From: Limnothrix sp. BL-A-16
Lineage (GTDB): Bacteria > Cyanobacteriota > Cyanobacteriia > CACIAM-69d
Length of the DNA stretch: 64,000 nucleotides
Direction: 5' to 3'
Assembly (NCBI GenBank): GCA_041937175.2
Contig: CP166615.1
Coordinates: 1,536,001 to 1,600,000 of the forward strand
The notes under the pieces were generated by a model. That model saw nothing but the letters and a program-made list of their open reading frames with translations. It did no database searches and was not told the origin of the DNA. Of this stretch, positions 25,064 to 61,832 are shown one piece after another. The position numbers were made by a program, and so were the translations under genes. The first letter of the stretch is position 1; each line of letters begins with the position of its first letter.

Positions 25064-25298
25064 GGCATCAGCCCAGATTGATTTTTTGATAGCTCGTCAA
25101 TTTATCGATCGTCAGTTGATGAGCAACCGATCATCAATGGACAAGTGATATGATTCTACTGAATTTTCAGAAAGCTTACCCCGGCAAGATTGACAGCAAA
25201 GGAATCAAGACCCCCAAGCACAAAATCAACAAGAAACCCATCAATCAAATTTTGTCAGTCTCAAGGTTCTGTAATTTATTGGTAATTTCACGACAGAA

Positions 25299-26276
25299 CT
25301 ACAACAGTCCCAAAGTTCTGAGGCAACGATAGGTAATTTCCTTGCGAGCGGTTGCCTGAGCCGGTTCCTGGAGTTCTAGGTTTGTGGCAAAGAAATAGAC
25401 CTGTTCATTTTGCTCCAAATAGCCCACATACCAGCCAATTTGAGGGTTCGCGCTCATGGCCCAGCCCGTTTTCGCTCTGACGGTGTATTGTGCCGTTTGA
25501 TCCATGATCATGATGTCTTTCACGATCGCGATCGCCCGTTCAGAAAAAGGCAACTGGTTTAGATAAAGACGCTGAAGAAACTGAATTTGTTCTTCGGGGG
25601 TAATTTTGAGCGGGCCCGAAAGCCAAAATTGATCAATATTAGAGGAATCGCCAATGTTGCGATCGCCGTAATTTGCCCCAATCACCCCAGCTTTCATACG
25701 CTCATAGCCAACACGCCGAGCCAGAATTTGATAGAACCAGACGGCTGAAACCTTGAAGGCCTCGCGCATGTTTAAATCTTGGTTCCAACCGGGAAAGGGT
25801 CGCTGAATGCCATCCCAAGTGAACCGCACATCTTGATCGGGAATCACTTGGGCATCAAGGGAAATTAGCGAATTTAAAATCTTGAAAGTGGAAGCGGGAG
25901 AAAACGGCGTTTGATTGCGCTCTGGATTGTGTTCATAAATTTGATTCTTCTGAGGGTCATAAATAATAATGGAGCCTTCAACGTTGAGATCTTGAAAATG
26001 TTGACCAAATTCAGAAACCACTTGTCGCTTGATCACAGCTTGCGGTTGAGATTTTGGTGTTAGTAATGCTTGTGAAAATTCTTGATGAGTCACCAACAAA
26101 TTAATTGGTTTTTCAATCAGGCTTTCGTTGGTTTTAGCCAAGCTGGGCAGAGAAAAATTTAGACAACAAAAACTTAAAAATGAACCAATTATTATCAAAA
26201 TCTGATCGCTCATTCGATAATTAGATTGATTCTTTTTTTGATCACTTGGTTGATTGCTGATTTGACTATTTTTCAT
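25299..26276 (-). CDS. Class D beta-lactamase (OXA-like) / penicillin-binding family protein
   Basis: PASTFKI, SAV, YGD (YGN-like), FWL, KTGW, GWYVG; N-terminal signal/TM segment. Confidence 0.88.
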   Translation of the reverse strand: MKNSQISNQPSDQKKNQSNYRMSDQILIIIGSFLSFCCLNFSLPSLAKTNESLIEKPINLLVTHQEFSQALLTPKSQPQAVIKRQVVSEFGQHFQDLNVEGSIIIYDPQKNQIYEHNPERNQTPFSPASTFKILNSLISLDAQVIPDQDVRFTWDGIQRPFPGWNQDLNMREAFKVSAVWFYQILARRVGYERMKAGVIGANYGDRNIGDSSNIDQFWLSGPLKITPEEQIQFLQRLYLNQLPFSERAIAIVKDIMIMDQTAQYTVRAKTGWAMSANPQIGWYVGYLEQNEQVYFFATNLELQEPAQATARKEITYRCLRTLGLL

Positions 26277-26456
26277 GATTCTATAATTAATGAAAATTCA
26301 AAAAATACCTAGATTAACCTAGGTTTTGGCTCAATAACTCGAACTGAGTTGGCCGTTCCAGCATACCACTAATTTGATCCCTCTTAAACCAGATCCAAGA
26401 TGGTTTCCAGCTTAAAATCAGGAAGTGAATGAAATACCAACCAATCTCAATCAACC

Positions 26457-27104
26457 ATGAGTGATCATCAACCCAGTTTAGAAACTGAGACAACGCCAGC
26501 TATCAACCCCGATCGCCTGCAAAAAATTAAGGCCGCCAAGGACAAGGCCCGAAACAATCGAGCTGGCAACGAACGGGGTTTATATTTGCTATTCACCGGA
26601 TTGGGCAAAGGCAAAACCAGCAGCGCCATGAACTTGGTCTATCGCCATTTAGCCCATGATTTGCCCGTGGCGGTGGTGCAATTTGTGAAAAATAACGAGG
26701 CGTTTCCCGATGGCGATCGCCTGTTGCTCACCCGGTTGCAAAACTTGGGATTTCCGGTGCAAATGCACACCATGGGCGGTGGATTCACCTGGGAAACCCA
26801 GGATCCCGATCGCGATCGGGCCATGGCCGCCGCTGCCTGGGAACAAGCCCTAATTTATATCCAAGATCCGCAAATTTCCCTGGTGGTGCTCGATGAGCTG
26901 CACATTGCCCTCAAGCATCAGCAACTGGATCTGGAGCTGGTGCAGGGGGGAATTCAAAATCGGCCTCACCATTGCCATGTGGCAAGCACGGGGCGTTATG
27001 CTCCTCAGGGGTTGATTGAAATGGCGGATTTGGTGACTGAAATGAACCGCATCAAACACCCGATCGCCCAGGGAATTCCCGCCCAGCAGGGTATTGAGTT
27101 TTAA
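26457..27104 (+). CDS. cobO: Cob(I)yrinic acid a,c-diamide adenosyltransferase
   Basis: FTGLGKGKTSSA, VQFVK, GFTWETQD, VLDEL, TGRYAP, KHP...AQQGIEF. Confidence 0.93.
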   Translation: MSDHQPSLETETTPAINPDRLQKIKAAKDKARNNRAGNERGLYLLFTGLGKGKTSSAMNLVYRHLAHDLPVAVVQFVKNNEAFPDGDRLLLTRLQNLGFPVQMHTMGGGFTWETQDPDRDRAMAAAAWEQALIYIQDPQISLVVLDELHIALKHQQLDLELVQGGIQNRPHHCHVASTGRYAPQGLIEMADLVTEMNRIKHPIAQGIPAQQGIEF

Positions 27105-27111
27105 AAAGCCT

Positions 27112-27133
27112 CAGGGCGCAGGATTGCGCCCTG
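27112..27133 (+). terminator. Hairpin downstream of cobO
   Basis: CAGGGCGCA-GGAT-TGCGCCCTG, a 9-bp stem with no clear U tract. Confidence 0.4.
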
Positions 27134-27463
27134 CATTCATCATAGGTTACGAATCTGGGGTGATTGCAATCTTGCTTGATATTTCTTAATCAAAAAGACA
27201 ACGAACTCTAAAGATTCTCAGCCGTTTGTGAACCGTACCTTTGGCCCCCGCCGATCGGGAAACTGCTCCAGGCGATCCGGTTGCCCGCCTTGAGAGACTG
27301 AATAGCCAATCTGCGATCGATAGCAGTGAAATTGGGTAAATTCGGAAGAGGCTGAACGTTGCTGAACGTTGCCGCTGAATGCTTGACCCTTCACCATGCC
27401 CCTTTGCTATCGCATCAATCAAGCGGACATCCCAGGCAAGAGACCCCAACCGAGAACCTGGCC

Positions 27464-28438
27464 ATGAACTGGGCAATTGAAACCCGTGGTTTAAGTAAAC
27501 AGTTCGATCGCAAGCTGGCCGTCAATCAGGTGGATTTGAAAATTTCCCCTGGGGAAGTTTATGGGCTAATTGGTCCCAACGGAGCAGGCAAAACCACTCT
27601 GATTCGGATGTTGGCGGCCGTGGAAGCGCCAACTCTCGGGGAAATTTTGATTGATGGTGAATATTTAACGGGTGAATCTCTCAGCAGTGAAGATCCCCAT
27701 CGGCGCGGTCGGCGGGCAAAACTGAAACAGCGAATTGGCTTTTTACCGGACGATTTCCCGGTCTATGAAGATCTGACCGTTTGGGATTATTTGGACTATT
27801 TTGGGCGGCTCTATGGCCTGCGGCGATCGCACCTGCGGCAGCGGCTTTATGAAGTGCTGGATTTGGTGCAACTGCTGCCGAAACGAGATAGCCCGATCGC
27901 CACCCTTTCGCGCGGCATGAAACAGCGGCTGAGCCTAGCTCGCACCATTATTCACGAGCCGATTTTGCTCCTGTTGGATGAACCCGTTTCCGGCCTTGAC
28001 CCGATCGCCCGTTTGGAATTTCGCAACCTGATGCGGATTTTGCAAGGGGCTGGCATGACCGTGCTGATTTCGTCCCATGTGCTCAGCGACTTGGCGGAAC
28101 TTTGCACCGCGATCGGGGTGATGGAACTGGGGCGGTTGGTGGCCAGCGCACCTCTGGAAGCCCTCTACGCCCAATTTGCACGCCACACCCTGGTCATCAC
28201 AGCCCTCGATCGGCTCAATGATTTGCAAACGATCCTGAAAGCCGACCCAAGGGCGATCGCCTGGGAATGTCATCCCACCACCGGCCGCATTACTGTGGAT
28301 TTTCAGGGTGATGAAACCGACTGCGCCAACCTGCTCGGGGAAATGGTGCGGGCCCAAATTCCGATTGTGGAATTCCGGCGCGATCGAGAAAGCCTGGAGC
28401 AAATTTTCTTGAAACTGGGACACCAACAAGCTTCATGA
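27464..28438 (+). CDS. ABC-2 type transporter ATP-binding protein
   Basis: GPNGAGKTT, LSRGMKQR, LLLDEP, SSH. Confidence 0.95.
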   Translation: MNWAIETRGLSKQFDRKLAVNQVDLKISPGEVYGLIGPNGAGKTTLIRMLAAVEAPTLGEILIDGEYLTGESLSSEDPHRRGRRAKLKQRIGFLPDDFPVYEDLTVWDYLDYFGRLYGLRRSHLRQRLYEVLDLVQLLPKRDSPIATLSRGMKQRLSLARTIIHEPILLLLDEPVSGLDPIARLEFRNLMRILQGAGMTVLISSHVLSDLAELCTAIGVMELGRLVASAPLEALYAQFARHTLVITALDRLNDLQTILKADPRAIAWECHPTTGRITVDFQGDETDCANLLGEMVRAQIPIVEFRRDRESLEQIFLKLGHQQAS

Positions 28439-34152: not shown

Positions 34153-34824
34153 CTAGACACTCAATAATGCAGCCGTCATCGCTTGGAACAGCGCCAACCC
34201 GTCCGTATTGCCCAGCGCCGCATCGGCCGCCCGCTCCGGGTGGGGCATCATCCCCAGAACGTTGCCCCGATCGTTGCAGAGGCCCGCGATTTGGTTCAAC
34301 GAGCCATTCGGGTTGCTGCCCTCATAGCGGAACAGCACTTGGCCCTTGTCCTCAATCTCCTTCAGGGTGTCCGGATCGGCATAGTAGCGACCCTCCCCGT
34401 GGGCGATCGGTAGGTTCAGCACTTGCCCCGCCGCGTAGCTCTCCGTCCACAGGCGGGCGCTGCGTTCCACCTTCACAGCCACCCGATCGCACACAAAGTG
34501 CAAATTCTCGTTGCGAATCAGGGCCCCCGGCAGCAGCCCCGCTTCCGTGAGGATTTGGAACCCGTTGCACACGCCCAAAACCGGCTTGCCCTGATCCGCC
34601 GATTCAATCACCGATCGCATGGCCGGCGAGAACCGGGCGATCGCCCCGCAGCGCAAATAGTCGCCATAGCTGAAACCGCCGGGAATCACAATTGCATCAA
34701 GATCGCTCAGGTCGCTGTCTTGGTGCCAAACCATGCGCGTGGGCAGGCCCAATAGCCCCTGAAACACCCACTGCATATCCCGATCGCAATTGGAACCCGG
34801 AAAAACGATAACGCCAACTTTCAT
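34153..34824 (-). CDS. purQ: Phosphoribosylformylglycinamidine synthase subunit PurQ
   Basis: [35 protein letters not shown]. Confidence 0.98.
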
Positions 34825-34887
34825 GGACTGGAGCAAACCCGCGACTTGCGCTCCTATCCTATCGTGCGATCGGTTAACTTTAGTTTC

Positions 34888-36384
34888 ATGCTCCTAACCG
34901 CTGACGATCTACTCTTTTTTCAGCGCTGCCCCCGGCGCGTCTTTTTGGATTTCTATGGCGATCCCAGTCGGCGCGCCCCCACCGCCGGTTTTATCCAAAA
35001 ACTCCATGACGAGAGCGATCGCCACAAGCGCGATGCGGCCCAGCAAGTTGCCGAAAAGCTGGAACTCGAACCCGTGCGGCCGCAGTTTCGCCGGGGCGAT
35101 CGGGAGGCGGGCGCGGCGGCCACCTTGGCGCTGATGGAAGCGGGGGCGGGGTTGATTGTGGGTGGCCTGTTGCGGGTCGAGGAAATCCCCGGCGTGGAGC
35201 TGGTGGGCCATCCCGATTTATTGGTGAAACGGCCGGGCCAGTCGGCCTTTGGCGATTGGATCTATGAGCCGGTGGATATTCGATTGGGCAAGAAGCCGAA
35301 GCTGGAATATCAACTGGTGGCGGCGCTCCATGCGGACTTGTTGACGATGATTCAGGGGGCGGCTCCGGCCAAGGCGGGCGTGATTTTGCGCGGGCGATCG
35401 CCCCATTGGGTGGACTTGCGGACGCGGCTGAAACAGGTGCAAGATTTGCTGGCGAACTTGATCGACCAACTGATGGAGGACGATCGGGAGCCGGAGCTGT
35501 TCATTTCCCGCAACCGCTGTTCCCTCTGCCATTGGGTGGGGGACTGCACCGATCGGGCACGGCAAACCAAGCACCTGTCGCTGATCCCCGGTGTGACTCC
35601 CGCCCGCTACCGGGTGTTGGAGCGACTGAAGATCCAGACGATCGAGCAGTTGGCGGCCACACCGGTCGATCGGCTCCAAGCATTTCCCGAGTTCGACGGT
35701 GCGGCGGAGGCGGTGTTGCTGCAAACCCGCGCCACCTTGACCCAGCAACCGATCGCCCTGGCCGTTCGTGAGGCTTGGTCGCCCGATCGCCTACCCGTTG
35801 CCCCGGTGGAACTCTATTTCGACATCGAAGCGGAGCCGGATATTTCTCTGGATTATTTGTTAGGGGTGTTGGTGGTGGATCGATCGCAACCGGAGCCGAC
35901 CTTTCACCGATTTCTAGCAGAAACTCCCGAGGATGAGCAGCGAATTTGGGGGGAATTTTTGGCGCTGGTCGATCGCTACCCGACCGCACCAATTTTCCAC
36001 TTTTGTGAGTATGAGCGGGATGCGAGCAAGCGCCTGGCCAAGCTCTACGGGTTAAGTGCTCAGCGGCTGGAATCCCTGCTCGATCGGTTTGTGGATGTCC
36101 ATGCTTGGGTGACGCAAACGGTGGTGTTGCCGGTGGAAGGCTATGCCCTGAAGCAAATCGCGGGCTATTTGGGGTTTGAGTGGCGCGATCGCACGGCCAA
36201 TGGCTCCCAAGCGGTCTATTGGTACGATAAGTGGCTGAAAACGGGCGATCGTTCCTATTTAGAGGCGATCGTCACTTACAACGAGGACGATTGTTTGGCC
36301 ACCTATCGGGTCAAACATTGGCTCGAACAATTCCATCAACAGCAATTAGAACTGCGATCAGAACTCGTTGATCTAGCGGTGTAG
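34888..36384 (+). CDS. TM0106 family RecB-like putative nuclease with a C-terminal RNase H-like domain
   Basis: [40 protein letters not shown]. Confidence 0.9.
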
Positions 36385-36416
36385 AAACTATCGCAGTGAG
36401 CCAGTGATGACCATGC

Positions 36417-39400
36417 CTATCTTGACTGAAAAGAGTTAGGCCACGAGTAGGTCTCTTGCTTCACGGCCTCATAATTAACATTCAATTGGGGTTCCAAGAA
36501 CAACAGGGCTGCAATCCGCCGAGCCATGTTGCTAACTTCCTGAACTTCTTCTCGTTTCAAGGGACGGCCAAGCAACGGCTCTTCTCGATAACTCAGCCAT
36601 TTTTTAATGACTTGATATCCCCCGATCGTATAATTCCACACGCGATCGGGAATATTTTTCCAGTAAGCAACATCATTCAAATAAATGTCATAGGTCATGG
36701 ATCCCAGGACAGATTGATCAGAGTCATTCAGCCGCTCCTGAAATTTGCCCTCTCCAGGCATAATTGCTCCCTTTTTCAAATATCCCCACCCACCCAATAG
36801 GGCTAAATCAGTCTCCGGATTCAATTGACCACCACCCACCTTAGAGATCACGGCAATGCTGCGTAAATGAGGATCAAGCTTCCCAGTTGTTATGCCATCA
36901 ACCTTTGTTTCTGTATCCAAATAACTGGCGATTTGCCGACCTAGGCTTGCAGAAGCCAGCAATAGTTCTCGGCTCTTAGGGAGCGGAATTCTTGGCCAGT
37001 TTTGTTGAATTCCATCAGCATTCTCTTGTAAATAAGTCGATGAGTATCCGATCGCCAAGGTGTGCATCCAAATCAACTGAGAAGTTTCAGCATCATGGTC
37101 AGGGTTTGGCAATCCTAAATCGGCTAAGTATTGACGAGCAGGATCAGAAAGATTTGCAAAGGGCTGATCAACTTCGGGTTTTTCGTCCAAAAAATTTAAG
37201 ATGCTTAACTGCTGTTGACGACGCAGCCTCGCTCCATTCATTAATTGCAACGGGAAATAGTAGGCATGACCTTTTAGAGAATCATTATCTCCAAGCAAGC
37301 GAGTAAAAAAGAATGGGTAACCTTCTGGACTGGCTACTCCGGCAGGTCGAGTCACTAAAAAGGAGTTGCCAGGCCAACATTGTTTCCAAAGAAAAGGACG
37401 CGGCTCATTCCAAATTGGTCGAGTTCCTGTGTAATAGCACCATCGAACTTCAAAAGGGCGAATAGAGTAACGAATTAAGTGACGTGACCGAAATCGTTCG
37501 ATTAATAACACTTTTTTCCTGGTTACTTTAGGATTAAACCGAGATTGTGGCTTGACAAGCCCATAGTTGAGTGACTTGTAAGCTTCCCAATCTAAATCGG
37601 GATTGAAATAGGCTTGCATCCGTTGTTCTAAAGCATCCTGATCAATATCAATCAATGCACCACTCCGCTTCTCCATCAATCCATTACTGGGGGAAACGGC
37701 ACAAAAATCACGAACTTTCGCCCACTCTAGATAATGCGGCTCAATTTTAGCAGGATAGAACGAGAACCGAGTTTCACGAATCGGATGGGTGATAGTGTAT
37801 TGTTTAGCGAAATTCTTCGCCTGCAAACTCTTCAGCAGATCTTCCCGCTTATTAACACCCCAAAAATGTCGGAAGCGCGTCACAGGTTTTGGGCTTTGCA
37901 AGCCTGTTTGGATCATCAGGGCGATCGCAGTACCTTTTTTGATACCTTCACGGTTGTAATGTGTTGAAAAAATGGAAGGATCAGGTTCGCCTTCTGGTGT
38001 AAGCTTTTTAGTTTCACGGCTATCACCATTCAAACAATCAATCCATAGCTGATCAAACGTTTGGAGAAATTGCTGGCGCATCACCACATAGGATGGATAT
38101 CTCAAATAGGAGAAATTTGAGATAAAACAAACTACACCCCTAGGGATTGCTTGCTTAGAAATACAACACTCAGCGACTCGAAAAAATCGGACATAAAGAT
38201 CATCTAAGTTGAATTTCTTGATGCCCCACTGATCAATCAGTCCTTTTTTATAAACTTCAACCAGCCCTTCTTCTTCCTTAGGACTCACACCGGCATAGGC
38301 ATTGTAGGGAGGATTTCCCAACACAACTAAAATGGGTTTACCTCGTTTAATTTCATCAGCCGCTTCTCGTTCTGCTTGCAATTCAGGATAGTTGATCGTT
38401 AATTGCTGAAATTTTTGTTTTGTTACATCATTCGGCGGCTCCCAGCCTGTCAGTGCATTGGTTAGATATACACCCACCCGTTCGCGATCGCCCTGCAACG
38501 ATGCACCCATGCTTTGCAATACGAGTCCCAGTTGCAAATGAGCCACAACGAATGGAGCCGTTAGGATTTCAAATCCAAAGACGCGATTTTTAGCCGCTTC
38601 TTTGAGATCAATCCCCACCAGAGCATTATCTCCTTTCTCGATTAAGGTTTGATGAATTCGCTTCAAAACCTCAACTAAAAATGCTCCAGTTCCACAGCAA
38701 GGATCAAGAATATAAACATTCTCATCAGCCAACCCATCTACAATGCCAAGTTCTTCCCTGAGAGCCGTATCAACCCTCGCCACCATGTATTGCACAATTT
38801 CTGGTGGCGTATACCAAACGCCCAGATCCTTGCGTAATTTCGGATCAAAAGCCTTCAAAAAGGGTTCATAGAAATATTGAACGGCTTGCCCTTCATCAAA
38901 TTGAGTAAAGAAAGCGGCACGATCGACTCGGTTCAGCACCTCTCCAGCCCAATCCAGCACTTCAACCAAATCTAAGCGGCCCAAGTTCGTGGGTGTCGCT
39001 ACTTTTTCAAACAAAGCTTTAACCATTGGGACATGGAGCGACCAAGCGGCTGTTTGCCAATCAAAGTAACCGCGCCTTGCCCCCTGCTTATGCCACAAAA
39101 CCCAAGCCGAAAAAATTCCGTAAAACAGTGTCTGAATCAGTGTTGATTTAAAAAAGTGATCCCCTTTTTGATCTTGAAACTGAATCCCTAAAGCATCTTC
39201 TAAAGCAGTACGAACTGCTTTTAACGCAGGAAGATCAGACTTGCCAATTCTCGCCCTTGCATCCTTAGCATAGGATGCTAAAAACCAGGCTAAGTCTTGA
39301 GGAGAGGTGATTACTGCTTTTTGCAGCATCACGCGCTTTAAATATTCATTAATTTGCTCTTCATGCTCTTGAGCAAATGCGCGAGGATTTTGTGCTTTTT

Positions 39401-39854
39401 GCCAAAATTCTTTTTCATTGGCAGCTAGCCGATAGGTTTCCAATGTAATAGGTTGACCGTTACTATCCTGTCCAATCAAAACAAAATCACGATAGTTGGT
39501 CACTAAAACTTGTCGATACTTATCCCAATATTTGGCTACTTGCTGAGTGGCTGATGTCACCCAGGCATCATCTCCGGTGCTCTTAACCTCGATCACCCCT
39601 CGCTCTGGATTTTGTGGATCGCTTGGTTGTTCACCCAGTTGGCGCTGATATTGCCGTGCCGTGAACAGACCACCATCGGGCATCCCCGCTCCCAGATTTT
39701 TGAGCTGCATGAAACAGCGAACTTTAGGTTTTAGTGTTCCCCCGATCGCATTGAGTAAGTTGACTAATGGAGTGTAATAGGAGGTTTCTTTGACAGTCGC
39801 TCCTGTTGCACGAATATCTCTTAACTCTTGGATATATTGTTCAAAGTGTCCCAT
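36417..39854 (-). CDS. Single-chain restriction-modification enzyme (Type IIG-like; N6-adenine MTase with an ISP/LlaBIII-like specificity domain)
   Basis: N-terminal PDGG...IEVK nuclease; GVWYTPPEIV, LDPCCGTGAF, GNPPY; C-terminal WNYTIGGYQVIKKWLSYR. Confidence 0.88.
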   Translation of the reverse strand: MGHFEQYIQELRDIRATGATVKETSYYTPLVNLLNAIGGTLKPKVRCFMQLKNLGAGMPDGGLFTARQYQRQLGEQPSDPQNPERGVIEVKSTGDDAWVTSATQQVAKYWDKYRQVLVTNYRDFVLIGQDSNGQPITLETYRLAANEKEFWQKAQNPRAFAQEHEEQINEYLKRVMLQKAVITSPQDLAWFLASYAKDARARIGKSDLPALKAVRTALEDALGIQFQDQKGDHFFKSTLIQTLFYGIFSAWVLWHKQGARRGYFDWQTAAWSLHVPMVKALFEKVATPTNLGRLDLVEVLDWAGEVLNRVDRAAFFTQFDEGQAVQYFYEPFLKAFDPKLRKDLGVWYTPPEIVQYMVARVDTALREELGIVDGLADENVYILDPCCGTGAFLVEVLKRIHQTLIEKGDNALVGIDLKEAAKNRVFGFEILTAPFVVAHLQLGLVLQSMGASLQGDRERVGVYLTNALTGWEPPNDVTKQKFQQLTINYPELQAEREAADEIKRGKPILVVLGNPPYNAYAGVSPKEEEGLVEVYKKGLIDQWGIKKFNLDDLYVRFFRVAECCISKQAIPRGVVCFISNFSYLRYPSYVVMRQQFLQTFDQLWIDCLNGDSRETKKLTPEGEPDPSIFSTHYNREGIKKGTAIALMIQTGLQSPKPVTRFRHFWGVNKREDLLKSLQAKNFAKQYTITHPIRETRFSFYPAKIEPHYLEWAKVRDFCAVSPSNGLMEKRSGALIDIDQDALEQRMQAYFNPDLDWEAYKSLNYGLVKPQSRFNPKVTRKKVLLIERFRSRHLIRYSIRPFEVRWCYYTGTRPIWNEPRPFLWKQCWPGNSFLVTRPAGVASPEGYPFFFTRLLGDNDSLKGHAYYFPLQLMNGARLRRQQQLSILNFLDEKPEVDQPFANLSDPARQYLADLGLPNPDHDAETSQLIWMHTLAIGYSSTYLQENADGIQQNWPRIPLPKSRELLLASASLGRQIASYLDTETKVDGITTGKLDPHLRSIAVISKVGGGQLNPETDLALLGGWGYLKKGAIMPGEGKFQERLNDSDQSVLGSMTYDIYLNDVAYWKNIPDRVWNYTIGGYQVIKKWLSYREEPLLGRPLKREEVQEVSNMARRIAALLFLEPQLNVNYEAVKQETYSWPNSFQSR

Positions 39855-40103
39855 GTCGATCAAGTTTCCGTAGTTAAAGTTGATGATTTGATATTAAAGC
39901 CCTTACCTCACTTAATAAGTACAGCGGACTGTAGGGTGAGCAATGTCCACCGACTAACAGCTTCGTATCATCTGCGATCTGACGTACCAATCGTTTGAGG
40001 TAAAGCCTGTAATTAGAGTTGATATTGATTTTTAAAGGTTAAGAATTCCGAGGATATTCAACACAAAACAAAATGAGAAGATACCAAAGTCTTTCTGTCC
40101 AAG

Positions 40104-40715
40104 CTAATTCATTTTAGAACACTGAAGACTCGTGGCGAAAATCCAGTCGATCGCCCCCATCAGCTCAGACAATCGATCGAGTGTGTAGCCCGTCGGGTGT
40201 TTTGTGAAGGTTTCCCCGTACAGCCGCCCAAATTCCCATAACTTCCCGTTGGACACCATGCCAAACAACGGGCGATCGCCCTCTTGGTTCAACCGTTGCG
40301 CCGCCCACAGCTCCGCCAAACATTGACCCCAGCCCGCCTCAAAATCATCCCGCTTGGCCTCAACCACAATCAAATAGGGCTGCTCAAACACTACCTTTCC
40401 TCGGGGCGATCGCCTAGCCACCACATAATCCGGCGTACCCGATAGCTCATCGCTGTAGCGCAGCGGTTGATGACTCCAAATCAGCAACTCACCCACATAC
40501 GATCGCCACACTTCCGTCAAAATGGGCGAGATAATATTTTCGCAAATTGCATATTCCGAATTGAAAACCATCCCTTCGGTCAAAACCAGTTGCAAGCGAT
40601 CTATAAAGCTGGGATCGATCGCTAGGGCATGATGTTCAAGGAAAGATGCTTCCTGATAAGTCATCGGGAACTCTGCCAAAACATCCGCGACGGTTTTGTA
40701 CTGTGTGAATGACAT
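40104..40715 (-). CDS. PD-(D/E)XK nuclease-like protein (HsdR-N-like cyanobacterial family)
   Basis: LSGTPDYVV...IVVEAKRDD...GQCLAEL...GMVSNGKLWEF. Confidence 0.8.
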   Translation of the reverse strand: MSFTQYKTVADVLAEFPMTYQEASFLEHHALAIDPSFIDRLQLVLTEGMVFNSEYAICENIISPILTEVWRSYVGELLIWSHQPLRYSDELSGTPDYVVARRSPRGKVVFEQPYLIVVEAKRDDFEAGWGQCLAELWAAQRLNQEGDRPLFGMVSNGKLWEFGRLYGETFTKHPTGYTLDRLSELMGAIDWIFATSLQCSKMN

Positions 40716-40877
40716 GATTAGGATTGAAATTGGATGGAATTTTAGAATCAGGAAAGTGCTTTTAGAATTTTGGTTTAATACAATAAATTTCCCGATCGAT
40801 GATTGAGAACTCAACCACCGTATCGGGAATTATCTGGAGCTGAATGATCACTGGGGCAACCCGCTTGACGGATTTTG

Positions 40878-41567
40878 TTAGCTTGAGCGTGCCTGATCCA
40901 ACAAAGCAACCAAATCGTTTTTCTTGGGATTCGGCTTGCTCGCCAGACCATGCAACCGCACCAGATCCTTGAGTTCTTTGACCTTCAAAGACTTCAATAC
41001 TGATAATTCTGGAATGGGTGGCAATGGCGGCGGCGTAATGTAAAAAACGCGCTCTAAATAGTCCAGCTTTGGCCCCTTGGTGATGCCGCACTTCAGCTTT
41101 GTGATTGGCTCCAAGTCTGACCAAGTTTCTCGGGGGGCTTCGCTGATCCGGGGAGCTGCGAGCTGTACTTTCAAGGTTTTGAGCGGTGTGTCTGGCTGAC
41201 TCACCACATATTCCAGTGCTTCAACAATTTGGTCATAGGATGCAGAGCTAAGGTTAATGCGGGGTGCAATTTCTTGCGACAAAACCCGCGCCACCTCGAT
41301 CGCGAGTTCGCTATCTTCCGCCACCACGCACCAAATGCGATCGAGTCCGGCTTCTGCGGCTGCTGAATAAACAAAAGAGTTGCCGATCACTTCATAGTCA
41401 TATTCAGGGTCTTGAATTTCTCGAACCACCACGGGCAACCAGTTTGATCCGCCCGATCGCGTCAGAATGTCTGCTGCTCCTTGCACCAAAAAGCTAGGCG
41501 CGGCTGTGGGCAACCCAGACCGAACTTTGTGCATCCAAAGATGCATCAGATTCCCAACATTGCTCAT
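40878..41567 (-). CDS. ParB/Srx-like N-domain + HhH-like + Rho-N/SAP-like DNA-binding protein
   Basis: PVVVRE...YEVIGNSFVYSAAAEAGL; RINLSSASYDQI; LKSLKVKELKDLVRLHGL...KKNDLVALL. Confidence 0.7.
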   Translation of the reverse strand: MSNVGNLMHLWMHKVRSGLPTAAPSFLVQGAADILTRSGGSNWLPVVVREIQDPEYDYEVIGNSFVYSAAAEAGLDRIWCVVAEDSELAIEVARVLSQEIAPRINLSSASYDQIVEALEYVVSQPDTPLKTLKVQLAAPRISEAPRETWSDLEPITKLKCGITKGPKLDYLERVFYITPPPLPPIPELSVLKSLKVKELKDLVRLHGLASKPNPKKNDLVALLDQARSS

Positions 41568-42940
41568 TGGATGAAGTACTCCTTGGCAAGATTCAGGTAA
41601 TAGTCACGAGCGGTTTTGTGGGCGTAGACTGCTGGCAAGCGCGAGAAGCTGGCTCCAGAAATTTCGGCATGATTTTCCAGCTCAAAAACCCGATAGTCTT
41701 TTCGAGCATTGGTCAATCGTGGAAAAAAGTAGGGTGTAAGGTCAAATTTATAGTCTTTCTTATGGCGTGCAATTAACTCTTCTAGGTAAACTCGCACGCG
41801 CTGGTGCTGAGAATTGGAGAGTTTTTCGCCATTGAAGAAAATCGGAAGGGCGATCGGGCCGCCATCTTGTCGCTTGGCCTGAATGGCTGGAAAGAATTCG
41901 CGAATGGCTTCGGCGGCGTTGTCGATCGAGTAGACATTGTTGGGCTTGACTGGCATCAAGATCACATCGGACGCATAAACCGCCTCTTGGCTGAAATATT
42001 GCCAGTTGGGTGGTGAATCAATAAAGATATAGTCATACTCAGAACGCAGGGAGTCGATGGCTTTCTTGAGCTTGTGATAGCCAATTTTACGAATCAAATC
42101 GTTGATGTCAATGCCCTTGCTATTCGGGTCATCGGTTTTGAGATCTTCAACTTTTGGGGCGGGTAGGATGTCAATGCCATACTCTTTGTTGGCTTTCTTA
42201 TCGAGCTTGCGATAGGTCGCGATCGCCTCATGAATATCAAGTCGATCGTCATCTAAGCAATCAAACAGGGTTGGCGATTGACTGGTCACCTCCAGGGTTT
42301 CTGTTAAGTCCCGTTGGTTTGGGTCAAAATCAATCACCAAGGTTGAATAGCCAATGAAGTTGAGAAGGCTGGCTAGGTTAATGGTGGTGGTGGTTTTGCC
42401 TACGCCGCCTTTGTTGTTGTAAACCGCAACCACCAAGGCGCGGGAAGGTTGGCGCAACAGGGGAGCAATCTGGTCATGAACCACTTGATCGATCGTTTCG
42501 GGTTTGATTTCCAAGCAGGGAGTTGCTGGAAAAATCACCTTATGGTGCTTCCGAAAAAGTTGCATGTGGACTGAATTGATGATCAATCCCCATTGAGCGT
42601 TTTTGCATTTGGGTGCTAGCAGATAGCGCCGCAATTGATTGAAAGTCGATCGATATTGCGGCGTGCCATAGCTTAAATTGCTATCGGTTCCCTTCGCTTC
42701 CACCAGAAAGTAGGGATCCACGGGAGATTGAATAAACGATCGCCCTTCTGAGTCGTCATAGCGTGCGGCAAAGTCAACGTGATCTGCACCCTGGCCCGTG
42801 GCGAATTGGGGAATTCGTTTTTGCTTGTCGAACCCCAAGACATCCATCAGAGCGTCAACAAAGTTCTGGATGACAATTGCCTCAGGAGCGGGAGCGGGCA
42901 CAGTGCGGAGTGCTTGAGCTAGGACTGGTTCATTTGCCAT
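41564..42940 (-). CDS. HsdR-N-like nuclease fused to a ParA/Soj ATPase
   Basis: VDFAAR...LVEAKG...QLRRY, then NNKGGVGKTTT, IDFDPNQ, IFIDSPP. Confidence 0.85.
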   Translation of the reverse strand: MANEPVLAQALRTVPAPAPEAIVIQNFVDALMDVLGFDKQKRIPQFATGQGADHVDFAARYDDSEGRSFIQSPVDPYFLVEAKGTDSNLSYGTPQYRSTFNQLRRYLLAPKCKNAQWGLIINSVHMQLFRKHHKVIFPATPCLEIKPETIDQVVHDQIAPLLRQPSRALVVAVYNNKGGVGKTTTTINLASLLNFIGYSTLVIDFDPNQRDLTETLEVTSQSPTLFDCLDDDRLDIHEAIATYRKLDKKANKEYGIDILPAPKVEDLKTDDPNSKGIDINDLIRKIGYHKLKKAIDSLRSEYDYIFIDSPPNWQYFSQEAVYASDVILMPVKPNNVYSIDNAAEAIREFFPAIQAKRQDGGPIALPIFFNGEKLSNSQHQRVRVYLEELIARHKKDYKFDLTPYFFPRLTNARKDYRVFELENHAEISGASFSRLPAVYAHKTARDYYLNLAKEYFIQ

Positions 42941-42975
42941 AGGACAGTCAAGGAAGTTCGATCGCCCATATCATC

Positions 42976-44370
42976 TTAACGGCGCTCACTCAAAAAGGCG
43001 ACACATTCCACATGGGGCGTTTGGGGGAAAAAGTCCGCTGGCTGCACCCGATCGAGCTGATATTGTCCCTGTTCACAGAGCAGCTTCAAATCTCGGGCCA
43101 GGGTGGCCGGTTTGCAGCTCATGTAAACAATCCGTGCCGGGGCGATCGCCCGCAAGGCTTCAATCACGCCCGGCTCACAACCTTTTCGAGGCGGATCCAG
43201 CAACACCACATCCGGTTGCAGTCCCAATTGGGGCAGCAGATCCGCCACTTTCCCCACCTGAAATTCAACATTGGTGAGCTGGTTGCGTTCGGCGTTGTGG
43301 CGGGCTTGGGTGACGGCTTCCGCTTGGGCTTCCATCCCGATCGCCCGGCCGGCCCGCTGGGCCAAGGGCAGGGTCAGGGTTCCCACGCCGCAATAGGCAT
43401 CCACCAAAATTTCCCGGCCGGTCAGGGCCAGTTGTTGGTGCATGGTTTTCAGCAGCTCTTCGGTTTGGTCGGTGTTCACCTGAAAGAAGGTTTCCGGGCG
43501 AATTTCAAACACCAATCCATTCAGGTGTTCCTCCAGGGCCGGCCGCCCCAGAACGCAGCGGGTTTCGGGCCCAAAAATCACGTTGTTGCGCTGGGGCTGC
43601 TGGTTCACACAGACCCCCACTAATTGCGGAAATTGCTCGCGCCACAGTTCCGCCTGGGTGACCAAACCGGGCAGCGCTTCCCAGTCGCGCACCACCAGGG
43701 TGAGGAGCATTTCGCCCGTGCGCCGCCCAATCCGTAGGGCCAGATGACGCACCGTGCCCGTGTGGGTGGTTTCGTCGTAGGGTTCCCAACCGCTGGCGGT
43801 CAAGTCCTGTTTCACCTGTCGCAGCAGGGGATCGAGTCGATCGTCCTGCACGGGACATTGGTTCAGGTTCACGATTTTGTGGCTGCCCTTTTGGTAATAG
43901 CCCGCACGGATTTGATCATCGGGGCCGGGAGCCACGGGATAGGTGGCTTTGTTGCGGTAGGCCAAGGGGGCCGCGGCGGCCAAAATGGGCAAAACGGGCG
44001 GTTCTTCAAAGCCGCCAAGCCGAGTGAGGGCCTGTTCCACCTGTCGCTGTTTGGCCAGCAGTTGGGATCCATAGGCCACATGCTGCCATTGGCAACCGCC
44101 GCACTTGTCCGCCACGATGCAGCCGGGTCGGACGCGATCGGGCGAAGGATCCAGAATCGACAAAATTTTGGCCCGGGCAAAGGTGGGCTTTACCTGCAAG
44201 AGCCGCACCGATAGGTAGTCACCCGGGACGGTTTCCGGCACAAACACCACCCGATCGGCCCAACGGCCCACGCCATCCCCCGAGTCGGCCAGGTCGGTAA
44301 TTTCCAGCTCGATCGCCGCCCCCTGTTTCCATTCCGGTTGGCTCATCTGATTGTCAAGGGTGGTGGTCAT
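42976..44370 (-). CDS. rlmD: 23S rRNA (uracil-5)-methyltransferase
   Basis: TRAM domain, CIVADKCGGCQWQH, FFQVN, DAYCGVG, LDPPRKG, FFPQTPHVE. Confidence 0.95.
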   Translation of the reverse strand: MTTTLDNQMSQPEWKQGAAIELEITDLADSGDGVGRWADRVVFVPETVPGDYLSVRLLQVKPTFARAKILSILDPSPDRVRPGCIVADKCGGCQWQHVAYGSQLLAKQRQVEQALTRLGGFEEPPVLPILAAAAPLAYRNKATYPVAPGPDDQIRAGYYQKGSHKIVNLNQCPVQDDRLDPLLRQVKQDLTASGWEPYDETTHTGTVRHLALRIGRRTGEMLLTLVVRDWEALPGLVTQAELWREQFPQLVGVCVNQQPQRNNVIFGPETRCVLGRPALEEHLNGLVFEIRPETFFQVNTDQTEELLKTMHQQLALTGREILVDAYCGVGTLTLPLAQRAGRAIGMEAQAEAVTQARHNAERNQLTNVEFQVGKVADLLPQLGLQPDVVLLDPPRKGCEPGVIEALRAIAPARIVYMSCKPATLARDLKLLCEQGQYQLDRVQPADFFPQTPHVECVAFLSERR

Positions 44371-44628
44371 GGCTCGATCGGCCTCAATCTCAATAGCGTG
44401 CAACGGCGGGCCAATGCGGTTGAGTGGCGTTGTGGGCCCTGGGCCTCCGGTCGATCGTGCCCTTGTACCTTGGCGACGGGAAACCGAACCGGCCCGGCGC
44501 AAAGGTGCGGTGATACGATGGAGGCGCGCCACAGCTCGATCGCGTCATGACGCTCGATCGGGCGATCGCCACCGGCCAACTGCATTGGCCCCCATTATCT
44601 CGCCTAGTACGCCACCCGATCGCCTGCC

Positions 44629-47433
44629 ATGTTGAAAGCTCTGCTGGGAGACCCCAACGCCCGCAAACTCAAGCGGTTCCAACCCGACGTGGTGGAAGTC
44701 AACCTCCTTGAAGAGGACATCGCGAAGCTGTCGGACGACGAACTCAGGGGCAAAACCGCCGAATTTCGCCAAAAACTGGCCCAAGCCCGCAACGACAGCG
44801 AACGCAAGGAACTGCTAGACGACATCCTGCCCGAAGCCTTCGCTGTGGTTCGCGAAGCGGGCAAGCGGGTGTTGGGAATGCGCCACTTTGATGTGCAACT
44901 CCTGGGCGGCATTGTGCTGCACAACGGGCAAATTGCAGAAATGAAAACCGGGGAAGGGAAAACCCTGGTGGCCACCCTGCCGTCCTATCTGAATGCCCTC
45001 ACGGGCCGCGGGGTGCATGTGGTGACGGTAAACGATTACTTGGCCCGCCGGGATGCGGAGTGGATGGGCCAGGTGCATCGGTTCCTGGGCCTGTCCGTGG
45101 GGCTGATTCAGCAGGGCATGAGTCCCGAAGAGCGCCGCCGGAACTATGCCTGCGACATCACCTACGCCACCAACAGTGAGCTAGGGTTTGATTATCTGCG
45201 CGACAACATGGCCACCACCATCAACGAAGTGGTGCAGCGGCCCTTTAACTATTGCGTGATTGACGAAGTGGATTCGGTGCTGGTTGATGAGGCCCGCACC
45301 CCGTTGATCATTTCTGGCCAGGTCGATCGCCCCACCGAAAAATATCTGACCGCCGATGAGCTGGTGCGGCAACTGGTGCGCGATGACCACTACGAAGTGG
45401 ACGAAAAAGCCCGCAACGTGATCATGAGCGATGAGGGGTTCATCGCCGCCGAGCAAATGTTGGGGGTTACGGATCTGTTTGATTCGGAAGATCCCTGGGC
45501 CCACTACATCTTCAACGCCCTGAAGGCCAAAGAACTCTACCTGCGGGATGTGAACTACATCGTGCGGGCCGGGGAAGTGGTGATTGTGGATGAATTCACC
45601 GGGCGGGTGATGCCGGGTCGCCGCTGGAGCGACGGCTTGCACCAGGCGATCGAAGCCAAGGAGCGGGTGGAAATCCAAAACGAAACCCAAACCCTCGCTT
45701 CCATCACCTACCAAAACTTCTTCCTGCTCTATCCCAAACTGGCGGGCATGACCGGCACGGCCAAAACCGAAGAGGCCGAGTTTGAGAAGATCTACAACCT
45801 GGAAGTGACGATCATTCCCACCAACCGCACCAACTCGCGGAAGAACTACTCGGATGTGGTTTACAAAACCGAGGTGGCCAAGTGGAAGGCCGTGGCCGAA
45901 GAGTGCTTGGAAATGCACGAAATGGGTCGTCCCGTGTTGGTGGGAACCACGAGCGTTGAAAAGTCGGAATTGCTGTCGGAATTGCTGGCAGAGCGCAATA
46001 TTCCCCACAACCTGCTGAACGCCAAGCCGGAAAACGTGGAGCGGGAGTCGGAAATCGTGGCCCAGGCGGGGCGGCGCGGAGCCGTGACGATCGCCACGAA
46101 CATGGCCGGTCGCGGCACGGACATCATCTTGGGCGGGAACGCGGACTACATGGCCCGGCTGAAGGTGCGGGAATATCTGATGCCCAAGTTGGTGCGCCTG
46201 GAAGAAGAGGATGAGTTTGAAGTGATGCAGGTGGCGGGCCTGAGCGGCCGGCAAAAGGCCCAGGGCTTTGGCAACTCGGGCAAGAAGCGCAAAACCTGGC
46301 AAGCGGCTCCGGAAATTTTCCCCACCCCGATTACGGCCGAGGCGGAAAAGATGCTGAAGGATGCGGTGACCTTCGCGGTCAAGACCTATGGCGAGCGATC
46401 GCTCCCGGAGCTAGAAGCCGAAGAACTGTTGGCGATCGCCTCGGAAAAGGCCCCCACCGATAATGAGGTGGTGCAAGGCCTGCGGGAAGCCTACAACCAA
46501 ATTCGCCGGGAATATGAGGCTTTCACCGACAGCGAGCATGAAGAGGTGATCCAACTGGGTGGCCTGCATGTGATCGGGACGGAGCGCCACGAATCGCGCC
46601 GGATTGATAACCAGTTGCGCGGGCGGGCCGGTCGCCAGGGTGACCCCGGTTCCACTCGGTTTTTCCTGAGCTTGGAAGATAACCTGCTGCGGATCTTTGG
46701 GGGCGATCGGGTGGCTGGCCTGATGCAAATGTTCCGTGTGGAAGAGGACATGCCGATCGAGTCGGGAATGCTGACCCGATCGCTCGAAGGGGCCCAACGA
46801 AAGGTCGAAACCTATTACTACGACATCCGGAAGCAGGTTTTTGAATACGACGAGGTGATGAATAACCAACGTCGCGCCATCTATGCCGAGCGTCGCCGCG
46901 TCCTCGAAGGGGAAGACCTGAAAGAGCGGGTGATTGAATATGCCGAGCGGACAATGTTCGACATTGTGGATGCCTATGTGAACCCCGATTTGCCAGCGGA
47001 GGAATGGAATCTGGAGAAGATGGTGGACAAGGTAAAAGAATTTGTCAGCACCATCCAAGACCTGACTCCCCAACAGATTGAGGATTTCAACCCCACGGAA
47101 ATCAAGACCTTCTTGGCCGAGCAGGTGCGGATTGCCTACGACATCAAGGAAGGGCAAATCGACAGCCTGCGCCCCGGCTTGATGCGGGACGCGGAACGCT
47201 ATTTCATCCTTCAGCAAATTGACACCCTCTGGCGCGAGCACCTGCAACAGATGGATGCGCTGCGGGAAACAGTGGGTCTGCGCGGCTACGGCCAGAAGGA
47301 TCCGCTGGTGGAATACAAGAGCGAAGGCTATGAACTCTTCTTGGACATGATGACCAACATGCGCCGGAACGTGGTTTATTCCCTGTTCCAATTCCAACCG
47401 CAAGTCCAGGAGCGCGAACCGGAAACGGTTTAG
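44629..47433 (+). CDS. secA: Preprotein translocase subunit SecA
   Basis: [44 protein letters not shown]. Confidence 0.99.
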
Positions 47434-47453
47434 GGCAGATTTCGACAGCCCCA

Positions 47454-47602
47454 GAGGATATCTGAGGAGTCGCTTGGGGCGCTTGCAAAACACCAGTCGT
47501 CGTTTAGGCAAGGGGCTTAAGCCCCTTGTCTGTGTTGACCGCTTGTCTGTGTTGATCAATCGAGATTCACAAGGTTGCCGTTTTGGCTGTGCAGATATCC
47601 TC
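47454..47602. mobile_element. MITE family A copy between convergent secA and xseA
   Basis: TIRs GAGGATATCTG / CAGATATCCTC; flanks CCA and TCA; palindrome at 47509-47528. Confidence 0.82.
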
Positions 47603-60347: not shown

Positions 60348-60359
60348 TAATCCAGCCAC

Positions 60360-61814
60360 ATGGAACTACAACCCAAACCTACCGCCGCCCTCTGCTTGCC
60401 AGAATCTGAGATTTCAGCACTGTTGCAAGGGCGAATGCTGGCGATGTTGTCCGCCACGTTCATCAAGCCCCAGCGCATGTTGGCGCTTCAGCCGATTCCC
60501 GATCGCCTCAATCCCCGATCGCACGATCGCCCCTACCGATTCGCAGATTTGGGTTCCGAGAGCCTTCCCCCCGCCATCCGGGCGATCGTCACCTGTGTGG
60601 AATGCCAAATTATTGACGACTTGGCGGCCGTCGATGCGATCGCCGCCCTCACCATTTGGTCTGAGGATTTCCTCGCCCGTTCGATCGCCACCAAAGGACA
60701 CTTATTCCTAGCCACCGTCCGTGCTTTTCGACTGGTCACCCCCCACCCCCTAGAGCACGATTTTGAAGACCTCAGCGCGATCGGAAAATGCGTGGTGATG
60801 CCCCGTCCCTTCACGGGCGAAAATCCTGAGCCGGTGCTGCCGGAAGCGGTGTTTAAACGGCGATCGCAACAACTGCGCGATCAACAACCGCCCGAACATT
60901 CAGAACTTGAAGCTCTGCAATCCGCCCTTGCTGATTTAGCCAACACACTGCCCAGCGCCACACAATTAGACAACCGCATCCAAGCCTTTTTGGGGTGGCG
61001 CGTGCCAGGGCGATCGTCCCGTCTCAGTCCCTGGATGAGCAAAATTTCTAAAGTCGGTGCATCCAGCGAAGGCAACGAATTCGAGCGGCTGGTGCGCCAA
61101 GCCATGATTTCCTTAGGATTTTCTAACCGCAATCAAAATCCCAAAGCTAGCCTTGATCCCGATAGTGTCGGCGGCGCAGGCGGTCTAGATTTTGTTTGTG
61201 AATCGCCCTATTTAATCATCGGTGAGTGTAAATCAAGCAGCCGCGATACGCTACCCGATGGGGTGTTTTCGCAGCTTATGAAACTTGGTAACAAATATCT
61301 CAATCCTGAAGACTATGAACAAGCCATAAAATTAGTTATTTCTGTTGGCAAACCCAACCACCATGCTCAAAAAACAGCCCAAGGCAACCGTATGAATTTG
61401 ATTAAGCCCACCACCCTAGAACGCTTGGTTAAGCTCAATGTTTCCTATCCTGGTTCGTTGAATTTATGGGAGCTAGAAAATTGCCTAAAAAATCCGCCCT
61501 ATGCTCAAGAAGCTGATGACCAAATCAATGATTTTATAGATGAAAAAATTGAACAATTGCGAATCCGTGCATTTTTGATTGATTGCCTAAAACGACTAAC
61601 AAGTAACAATCAAAATAAAGGAGCTAGCACAGTCGAGCTTCACGCAGTCTATATCACCTCCCAGCCCCCCAAATTGCTGGAAATGGAAGACCTGCACAGC
61701 GTGGCGATCGAACTGGCTTCCCCACTCACCGGTTATCTAAGTCGCGAAAAGGGTCGTGAGTGGCGGGACGATCGCTTCTTTTGGTTGCGCGACTTGGCGA
61801 TCGAGAAAATCTAG
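60360..61814 (+). CDS. DUF1802-like N-domain fused to an Mrr-like PD-(D/E)XK nuclease
   Basis: ALCLPESEISALLQGR...LTIWS...LFLATVRAFRL, then NEFERLVRQAMISLGF, GGLDF, IGECKS, QL. True start may be ATG at 60360 or nearby. Confidence 0.75.
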   Translation: MELQPKPTAALCLPESEISALLQGRMLAMLSATFIKPQRMLALQPIPDRLNPRSHDRPYRFADLGSESLPPAIRAIVTCVECQIIDDLAAVDAIAALTIWSEDFLARSIATKGHLFLATVRAFRLVTPHPLEHDFEDLSAIGKCVVMPRPFTGENPEPVLPEAVFKRRSQQLRDQQPPEHSELEALQSALADLANTLPSATQLDNRIQAFLGWRVPGRSSRLSPWMSKISKVGASSEGNEFERLVRQAMISLGFSNRNQNPKASLDPDSVGGAGGLDFVCESPYLIIGECKSSSRDTLPDGVFSQLMKLGNKYLNPEDYEQAIKLVISVGKPNHHAQKTAQGNRMNLIKPTTLERLVKLNVSYPGSLNLWELENCLKNPPYAQEADDQINDFIDEKIEQLRIRAFLIDCLKRLTSNNQNKGASTVELHAVYITSQPPKLLEMEDLHSVAIELASPLTGYLSREKGREWRDDRFFWLRDLAIEKI

Positions 61815-61832
61815 GCGATTCCTTTTCAGTCC

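Follow-up and report, generated by a model that had tools for sequence, protein, structure and literature searches.

A restriction-type nuclease-ParA fusion and its ParB-like partner in Limnothrix sp. BL-A-16, a predicted effector-ParAB pair of cyanobacteria

The closest described relatives of the locus reported here are the effector-ParAB systems, which were defined computationally by Li, Burroughs and Aravind (bioRxiv 10.64898/2026.10.19.760177, 22 Oct 2026). According to the available passages of that preprint, their ParA belongs to the ConB1 clade (PriB1/ConB1 type) and carries an asparagine before the Walker A motif and a valine inside it, the operonic coupling of ParA and ParB is retained, and the ParB is predicted to lack enzymatic activity. 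The effector varies, being most commonly a restriction endonuclease (REase), and is fused to the N-terminus of ParA, and the helix-turn-helix (HTH) of ParB is replaced by C-terminal helix-hairpin-helix (HhH) modules or Rho-N-type helix-extension-helix (HeH) modules. The same passages describe the systems as over-represented in multicellular bacteria, for example cyanobacteria, and predict, without experiments, that ParB recognises the DNA of an invader (plasmid or virus) and recruits ParA into a static complex, the effector serving as a second line of defence (10.64898/2026.10.19.760177). In the 64-kb stretch of Limnothrix sp. BL-A-16 contig CP166615.1 analysed here (hereafter the window), two overlapping genes encode a nuclease::ParA fusion and a ParB-like partner. 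With slightly more confidence than doubt, we read this pair as a self-contained two-gene conflict module directed against mobile elements and derived from a ParAB partition operon.

The fusion gene occupies positions 41564 to 42940 of the window on the minus strand (stop codon at 41564-41566 in the list of open reading frames, ORFs) and encodes 458 amino acids. Its larger part, residues 166-458 (41567 to 42445, minus strand), is a ParA/MinD-type ATPase domain with a deviant Walker A motif NNKGGVGKTT (N175-T184), a D204xD206 motif and the Walker B aspartate D308. The Pfam family AAA_31 matches residues 170-343 with an expect value (E) of 9.6e-27 and further ParA/MinD families match too, while the partition models of NCBIfam match far under their cut-offs (ParA_partition, 84 bits for a cut-off of 180). 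In a confident AlphaFold2 model built with 34 homologues as input (predicted local distance difference test, pLDDT, 84.3; predicted template-modelling score, pTM, 0.88), residues 166-458 superpose on the ParA structure 8ray_A with a Z score of 25.7, on the MinD-type protein 1g3r_A with Z 24.6 and on McdA (6noo_A) with Z 24.3.

Residues 1-165 of the fusion (42446 to 42940, minus strand) are assigned to the PD-(D/E)xK nuclease domains, within the restriction class of type I / IIG, with D56, E81 and K83 as the putative catalytic triad, followed by Q102 and Y106. This assignment draws on families detected in relatives, on fold matches and on conservation. A Pfam scan of the N-domain of the window fusion itself gave no hit at E<=0.01. 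PF13588 (HSDR_N_2) matches 34 of the 36 aligned N-domains of the family, with a best E of 2.1e-9, and PF04313 (HSDR_N) matches 10 of them. Searches of solved structures by sequence returned only the ParA part when the fusion was the query and only chance-level matches (E>=0.09) for a profile of the N-domain. At the level of the model, residues 4-166 match the nuclease domain of BpuSI, a Type IIG enzyme (3s1s_A), with Z 12.5 over 139 aligned residues at a root mean square deviation (rmsd) of 3.0, that of DrdV (7lo5_A) with Z 11.4 over 128 residues, and type I HsdR (3h1t_A) with Z 10.8 over 115 residues.

Conservation was scored over the window and 80 related loci, that is 81 fusions, and over 80 partners. 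D56, E81, K83 and Q102 are invariant in all 81 fusions and Y106 is found in 72, so that the D...ExK residues of the nuclease signature in the original prediction are retained throughout the homologues. N175, N176, K177, V180, K182, D204, D206, Q209 and D308 of the ATPase are equally invariant, at an overall identity of ~45-50%. When 1.84 billion cluster representatives were searched with a profile of the N-domain, 134 matched at E<=0.001. Roughly one third of them are 424-515 amino acids long, the size of the fusion, and most others are shorter than 300 amino acids and represent either fragments or stand-alone domains, which a profile search does not distinguish. The small number of matches and their sizes indicate that this nuclease subfamily is small and that most of its full-length members are ParA fusions. 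Taken together, motifs and model describe a restriction-type PD-(D/E)xK domain whose catalytic triad is intact and which is predicted to be a nuclease, joined to a ParA with all the motifs for ATP binding and dimerisation.

The partner gene lies directly downstream, at 40878 to 41567 on the minus strand, and encodes 229 amino acids. Its ATG overlaps the TGA of the fusion gene in an ATGA, as read in the sequence (...CAATGAGC...). The AlphaFold2 model of the partner (pLDDT 92.7) shows three modules. The first, residues 1-102 (41262 to 41567, minus strand), has a ParB/sulfiredoxin (ParB/Srx) fold, with matches to PadC (Z 10.6), KorB (Z 10.4) and sulfiredoxin (Z 9.3). In Foldseek the best whole-chain matches of the model are CTP-bound ParB structures (E 9e-6); the alignments to entire ParB chains span ~234 columns, but at an rmsd of at least 15. 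By sequence the likeness is fainter: ParB_N of Pfam scores 18.7 bits on the window partner for a cut-off of 26.3, and a search of solved structures gave nothing significant, the best ParB match having an E of 0.96. The GxxR arginine motif of ParB serves CTP binding. At the aligned position the partner has GNSF (residues 62-65), of which N63 is present in 80 of 80 partners, F65 in 78, G62 in 68 and S64 in 62, and an arginine occurs anywhere in residues 58-72, the stretch aligned to the GxxR box, in a single partner of the 80.

The second module, residues 103-180 (41028 to 41261, minus strand), is a putative ComEA-type (HhH)2 module with conserved INLS and LKCGIT motifs; L106, R146, W149 and C160 are invariant in all 80 partners. 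Residues 101-178 match the ComEA-like structures 8dss_B (Z 6.8) and 2duy_A (Z 6.6), and Tex with Z 5.5. The third, residues 186-229 (40881 to 41012, minus strand), resembles Rho-N, SAP and HeH-type modules, matching Rho (1a62_A) with Z 6.7 and SAP/LEM-type domains with Z ~5.3-5.5. As the Z values of both modules are middling, their assignment rests on fold likeness together with Pfam, where SAP matches the window partner weakly (E 0.033) and PF07498 (Rho_N) is precomputed for most of the best 120 of 173 relatives. No HTH family was detected in the Pfam scan of the partner. Two homologues of 261-265 amino acids (P0123 and P0124) carry the HhH-type middle module twice, the second copy replacing the Rho-N tail. 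HhH and Rho-N/SAP modules are known elsewhere as DNA binders. By sequence and model, the partner is thus an obligatory ParB/Srx-fold protein devoid of the arginine motif, modelled with HhH and Rho-N/SAP modules where a canonical ParB has its HTH.

The analysis bears out the original prediction in every structural point: the position, sizes and overlap of the two genes, an HsdR-type nuclease joined to a complete ParA, and a ParB/Srx-like N-domain with GNSF for GxxR followed by two small modules of nucleic-acid-binding type. A working scheme can be proposed. On DNA, ATP would make the ParA moieties of two fusions dimerise as a sandwich, and this dimerisation would bring two nuclease domains together and lead to cutting. 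The partner would bind DNA through its HhH and SAP modules. It might mark invading plasmid or phage DNA and recruit the ParA-nuclease there, or it might hold the ParA-nuclease in check on host DNA, and we regard recruiter and brake as about evenly balanced. The invader would be destroyed or immobilised, or the infected cell would die or become dormant. Structure prediction of the complex between fusion and partner gave run scores of 0.50, 0.06 and 0.17, to be read against a mark of 0.32.

The fusion belongs to a family. More than 3000 relatives were found in databases, and the best 120 listed are 432-505 amino acids long, cover 94-100% of the query and share 44-82% identity with it. A one-genome-per-species collection of contigs contains 434 genomic stretches that encode a relative. 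These 120 full-length best matches and 434 stretches rule out both an assembly artefact and a fusion event unique to this genome. The partner has 173 database relatives, and the best 120 are 213-265 amino acids long. Eighty of the 434 stretches were kept as related loci. In the co-occurrence survey proposed with the original prediction, all 80 of these loci have the partner gene immediately after that of the fusion. The gap between the two is usually ~8-30 nt, reaching ~380-390 nt in three loci (L048, L052 and L077) and ~970 nt in one (L079). When the 1003 ORFs from these loci were clustered, the fusion recurred in 80 loci and the partner in 79, and no other family was comparably recurrent. 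After these two, the largest cluster of neighbours is present in 9 of the 80 loci, so that there is no third conserved gene.

Where source organisms are named among the listed relatives of the fusion, all are cyanobacteria, and the family is almost confined to records with this label. Within the phylum, a survey of 301 genomes from 132 genera, which scored five first-look candidates per genome and in which a zero means not found with this query, located the fusion (E<=1e-30) in 42 of the genomes and 31 of the genera. The distribution is patchy even inside genera (6 of 11 genomes in g4, 2 of 8 in g19 and 2 of 5 in g10), some genomes hold two copies, and in ten families of the phylum it was found in none of 166 genomes. 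G203, the one further genome from the family to which the Limnothrix strain belongs, gave no match to the fusion at E<=1e-30.

In a quick tree of the 81 fusions, built by maximum likelihood, Nostocales and Oscillatoriales are intermingled in both of the major subclades. On this tree 22 changes of order label are required, for a minimum of 11 and a mean of 38.5 after shuffling, and the well-supported branches put Nostocales in at least four places. The window fusion sits on a long branch (0.77). This pattern fits an old paralogy combined with gain, loss and some transfer. Two contigs from metagenome-assembled genomes with foreign labels, L080 (Rhizobium) and L060 (Actinomycetota), also carry the pair. 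In the tree L060 falls among cyanobacterial sequences and L080 joins the long branch of the window fusion, and for this reason both are probably mis-binned cyanobacterial contigs.

In the window, the pair is located in a low-GC island (36400 to 42950, strand not assigned), which is context and lies outside the conserved module. The GC content is 43-51% over 36.4-42.9 kb, compared with 58-63% on both flanks. This dip places the pair in an island of ~6.5 kb together with a Type IIG restriction-methylase of 1148 amino acids (36417-39863, minus strand; PADLOC REase_MTase_IIG, E 2.8e-83; Type_ISP_C, E 2.5e-27) and a PD-DExK protein of 236 amino acids from a Cas-associated PADLOC family (40104-40814, minus strand; PD_DExK, E 1.1e-44). 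At 34846-36384, on the plus strand, lies the gene for a RecB-like nuclease of the TM0106 family that also has an RNase_H_2 domain (TIGR03491, E 2.7e-157). Since the GC content of this nuclease gene (~60%) equals that of the host genome, it is probably native and outside the island. Thus, where two other nuclease-fold genes had been noticed beside the pair, there are three. None of them occurs in the 80 related loci, and neither do the neighbouring methyltransferase and SecA genes. The PD-DExK, Type IIG and TM0106 genes are therefore ruled out as members of the system.

Synteny around the island is broken in G203, as seen in an empty-site comparison. Several copies of the HIP1 palindrome (GCGATCGC) are found within the island, some of them inside the fusion gene, and they suggest that it has been resident for a long time. 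Three further stretches of the window, 8001-12000, 24001-28000 and 58001-64000, have a low GC content (0.42-0.48 against a background of ~0.52-0.60) and may be other acquired islands. Upstream, 35 nt separate the fusion ORF from a gene for an RNA uracil-5 methyltransferase. A scan for promoters and terminators gave no excess over shuffled sequences (5 promoter-like sites for 3.6 expected, and 0 terminators). In four candidate RNA runs no read fell on 34800-47500, not even on the SecA gene, which means that these runs do not contain the organism.

The same genome encodes a second, divergent module of this type outside the window (HSDR_N_2::ParA plus partner, L089:2549-4980, corresponding to G000:C1:1009548-1011979). 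Its fusion has 487 amino acids, matches PF13588 (E 2.3e-4) and AAA_31 (E 9e-44) and is 25% identical to the window fusion. Its partner of 323 amino acids, joined by a 4-nt overlap, has HGAD at the position of GNSF and a SAP-like tail, and matches the partner profile weakly in hhalign (probability 49%, E 1.8e-4). Moreover, in five proteins of 1065-1306 amino acids (P0375, P0294, P0376, P0377 and P0305) a superfamily 1 (SF1) helicase (AAA_11/AAA_12) precedes the nuclease-ParA unit, and P0305 has in addition a DUF559 endonuclease domain at residues 30-135. Helicase fusions of this sort, a nuclease combined with modules of DNA-binding type and a family restricted almost entirely to records labelled as cyanobacteria could also be expected of a housekeeping factor in DNA repair or recombination, engaged for example in the processing of DNA ends or in resolving chromosome copies in polyploid cells. 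We consider such a function very improbable, given that the gene was found in 42 of the 301 genomes searched and not in G203, that its location varies, that some genomes have two copies and that the window copy bears the signature of a low-GC island.

Several lines of evidence fit a module directed against mobile elements. The invariant catalytic and Walker residues are consistent with selection on catalysis, and the strict pairing in 80 of 80 loci, with no other conserved neighbour, is in agreement with a self-contained unit. The patchy occurrence even within genera, the variable site and the scattered labels in the tree fit it as well, and so do the low-GC island shared with a Type IIG enzyme, the second module in the same genome and the helicase super-fusions. 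The presence of a canonical ParB elsewhere in the genome and the lack of a parS-like array near the operon are likewise consistent with a departure from partition. Finally, an independent computational prediction points in the same direction, within the available passages of its preprint (10.64898/2026.10.19.760177).

A number of observations weigh against this reading. Sequence divergence is moderate and the motifs are rigid, and the rapid arms-race evolution that characterises sensors was not seen. In phage records a fused homologue was not found: none of the 47 matching records covers at least 80% of the query and they match the ParA part only, so that no link to phages is shown. In PADLOC-DB v2.0.0 neither protein matches a whole model, the fusion giving only a local P-loop match (PDC-M28B, E 5.9e-5, residues 166-208) and the partner none. 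A search of the literature found no experimental paper on such a pair. Of 146 immediate neighbours in the related loci, one was dropped for a coordinate slip. Among the 145 scanned with Pfam at E<=1e-5, 47 have no family and ~23 carry domains of mobile elements, toxin-antitoxin systems or nucleases (integrase 4, HNH 4, Uma2 3, XisI 3, transposase-related 3, PIN 2, MazF 1, HicB 1, P63C 1, DNA methylase 1). The others with a Pfam family, which make up most of the neighbours, are ordinary metabolic, photosynthetic and signalling genes. This census, for which no background was computed, shows a variable site and not an enrichment in defence islands. Small HNH endonuclease genes lie on both sides of the pair in two Microcoleus loci (L045:7498-10456 and L064:7473-10437).

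The PIN, MazF, HicB and Uma2 genes beside some of these variable sites bring to mind an addiction cassette of the toxin-antitoxin kind, in which the nuclease-ParA would be a DNA-damaging toxin neutralised by the partner, and which would stabilise an island or plasmid without conferring immunity. Two translationally coupled and strictly co-inherited genes, with nuclease motifs that appear intact, on plasmids (see below) and in a low-GC island, would suit this proposal. It is weakened by the size and multi-domain build of both proteins, which are large for a type II toxin-antitoxin pair, and by the two modules of DNA-binding type on the partner, which a simple antidote would not need; toxicity of the fusion and its binding by the partner are predictions only. 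On balance we hold an addiction cassette to be clearly unlikely.

The main rival reading is plasmid maintenance, to which the relatives found on plasmids lend weight. Full-length relatives of the fusion are present in 8 cyanobacterial plasmid records of PLSDB. The pair itself is found on two plasmids of Nostoc (45% and 43.5% identity), and on one of them, 'unnamed9', it sits beside genes for ParM and for a separate small ParA. Relatives that are further removed (25-32% identity) occur on plasmids of Acaryochloris, Pseudanabaena, Nostoc and Leptolyngbya, and the one that was aligned keeps the PD...ExK and Walker A motifs. In the three plasmid records inspected, the gene after the relative encodes a partner-like N-domain that keeps Asn63 and has no arginine at the GxxR position. 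The tails of plasmid partners range from none (134 amino acids) through one HhH (178 amino acids) to two HhH plus HeH (306 amino acids, Acaryochloris). On the 12.5-kb Pseudanabaena plasmid ABRG53g, a cassette made of a fusion-like ATPase and a 134-amino-acid ParB_N-like gene lies beside the CyRepA1 replication gene, and its ATPase, a 26%-identical relative, is the only annotated ParA-type gene in a database whose plasmid annotation is incomplete by design. This arrangement is compatible with a role in maintenance.

According to this alternative, the pair would serve the partition or positioning of cyanobacterial plasmids and polyploid chromosomes, with an ordinary ParA, a restriction-fold domain that binds or processes DNA and a partner acting as adaptor. 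Type Ia ParA proteins offer an analogy, as they possess an N-terminal DNA-binding extension. The complete ParA motifs, including the signature lysine K177, and the parA-parB gene order with translational coupling are what such a role would require. Plasmid ParA-type systems have also been recruited in cyanobacteria, as the available passages of MacCready et al. describe (PMC7182216). Set against this are features of both proteins: the partner lacks GxxR and, by structure search, has HhH at the place of the centromere-binding HTH, its first 30 residues contain, in the consensus, no conserved basic residue of the ParA-stimulating kind, and an invariant catalytic triad is unnecessary for mere DNA binding. 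The genomic evidence speaks in the same sense. Repeats in 39800-43200 consist only of HIP1 copies and chance-level repeats, without a parS-like array, a single or distant site being one that would escape such a scan. The chromosomal copies are accessory and patchy, the Limnothrix genome already has its canonical ParB, and Nostoc 'unnamed9' has the pair on top of ParM and a small ParA. We judge maintenance unlikely, a role that keeps part of its probability because distant relatives sit on cyanobacterial plasmids.

The original suggestion of a repurposed partition module is thus sustained in part: it agrees with the invariant residues, the patchiness, the variable site, the island, the super-fusions and the prediction of the preprint, and it is held in check by the plasmid relatives. 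A mixture of the two roles can also be envisaged, in which the system would still partition its own small plasmid and cut DNA devoid of a cognate ParB-like protector. A nuclease pair gated by ATP through ParA dimerisation would then amount to a mechanism of plasmid incompatibility or exclusion, and the chromosomal copies would have been domesticated to exclude incoming plasmids. We regard this mixed role as quite improbable.

If the reading as an anti-mobile-element module is true, a partitioning machine would have been rebuilt as an immune or exclusion device targeting DNA, in which the ATP switch of ParA would control a restriction-type nuclease and an arginine-less ParB fold would act as either a sensor or a brake. 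The preprint already contains this idea, and the value of the present locus is that of a clean, experimentally tractable test case: a compact two-gene family with rigid and easily mutated motifs, in cyanobacteria, where few defence systems have been tested. It also has a bearing on the plasmid tools used for engineering cyanobacteria.

With respect to known systems, the pair shares with canonical ParABS (Soj/Spo0J and plasmid type I) the ParA fold with all ATPase motifs, including the signature lysine K177 and K182, the order parA-then-parB and a ParB/Srx N-domain on the second protein. However, ParA here bears a nuclease domain, the partner has GNSF in place of GxxR and is modelled with HhH and SAP modules at the position of the ParB HTH, no parS-like array was found in 39800-43200, and the gene is accessory and patchily distributed. 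The nuclease domain resembles the Type I HsdR and Type IIG/IIL enzymes (the BpuSI, DrdV and MmeI class) in its fold (Z 10.8-12.5), its D...ExK triad, its QxxxY motif and the presence of HSDR_N_2 and HSDR_N in the family. It differs from them in that methyltransferase, specificity and translocase modules are all missing and in its coupling to a ParA switch. In the GmrSD / BrxU / SspE class, one protein combines an HNH-type nuclease with a ParB/Srx-like DUF262 domain that is active as an NTPase. This class and the pair have in common a ParB/Srx-fold domain associated with a DNA nuclease in a conflict setting, whereas here the ParB-like domain is on a separate protein without the arginine motif and the putative nuclease is a PD-(D/E)xK domain attached to ParA. 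In the McdAB system, which positions carboxysomes, a ParA-family ATPase of cyanobacteria likewise has a downstream partner of its own, and McdA is among the fold matches given above. Nevertheless, the available passages on McdAB describe McdB as predicted to be intrinsically disordered, not as ParB-like, and make no mention of a nuclease domain on McdA (PMC7182216).

The comparison with the effector-ParAB systems, in so far as the available passages of the preprint define them, gives a different outcome. By sequence markers, the ParA has the expected NNKGGVGKT motif, with N175, N176 and V180 in all 81 fusions. The operonic coupling is present as the ATGA overlap in Limnothrix and as a downstream partner in 80 of 80 loci, and the partner, with GNSF for GxxR and an arginine in 1 of 80, corresponds to the ParB predicted to be inactive. 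An REase-type effector is N-terminal to ParA, as indicated by HSDR_N_2 in 34 of 36 N-domains, by BpuSI at Z 12.5 and by the triad in 81 of 81 fusions, and HhH plus Rho-N-type HeH modules are C-terminal on the ParB-like partner. There is no architectural difference, and enrichment in cyanobacteria is common to both. Observed here, and not in those passages, are the plasmid-borne relatives, one of which is the sole annotated ParA-type gene of a 12.5-kb plasmid, and the super-fusions with SF1 helicases. Because every architectural feature that could be compared matches, the pair is assigned, from its sequence and predicted structures, to the recently and computationally defined effector-ParAB systems (10.64898/2026.10.19.760177).

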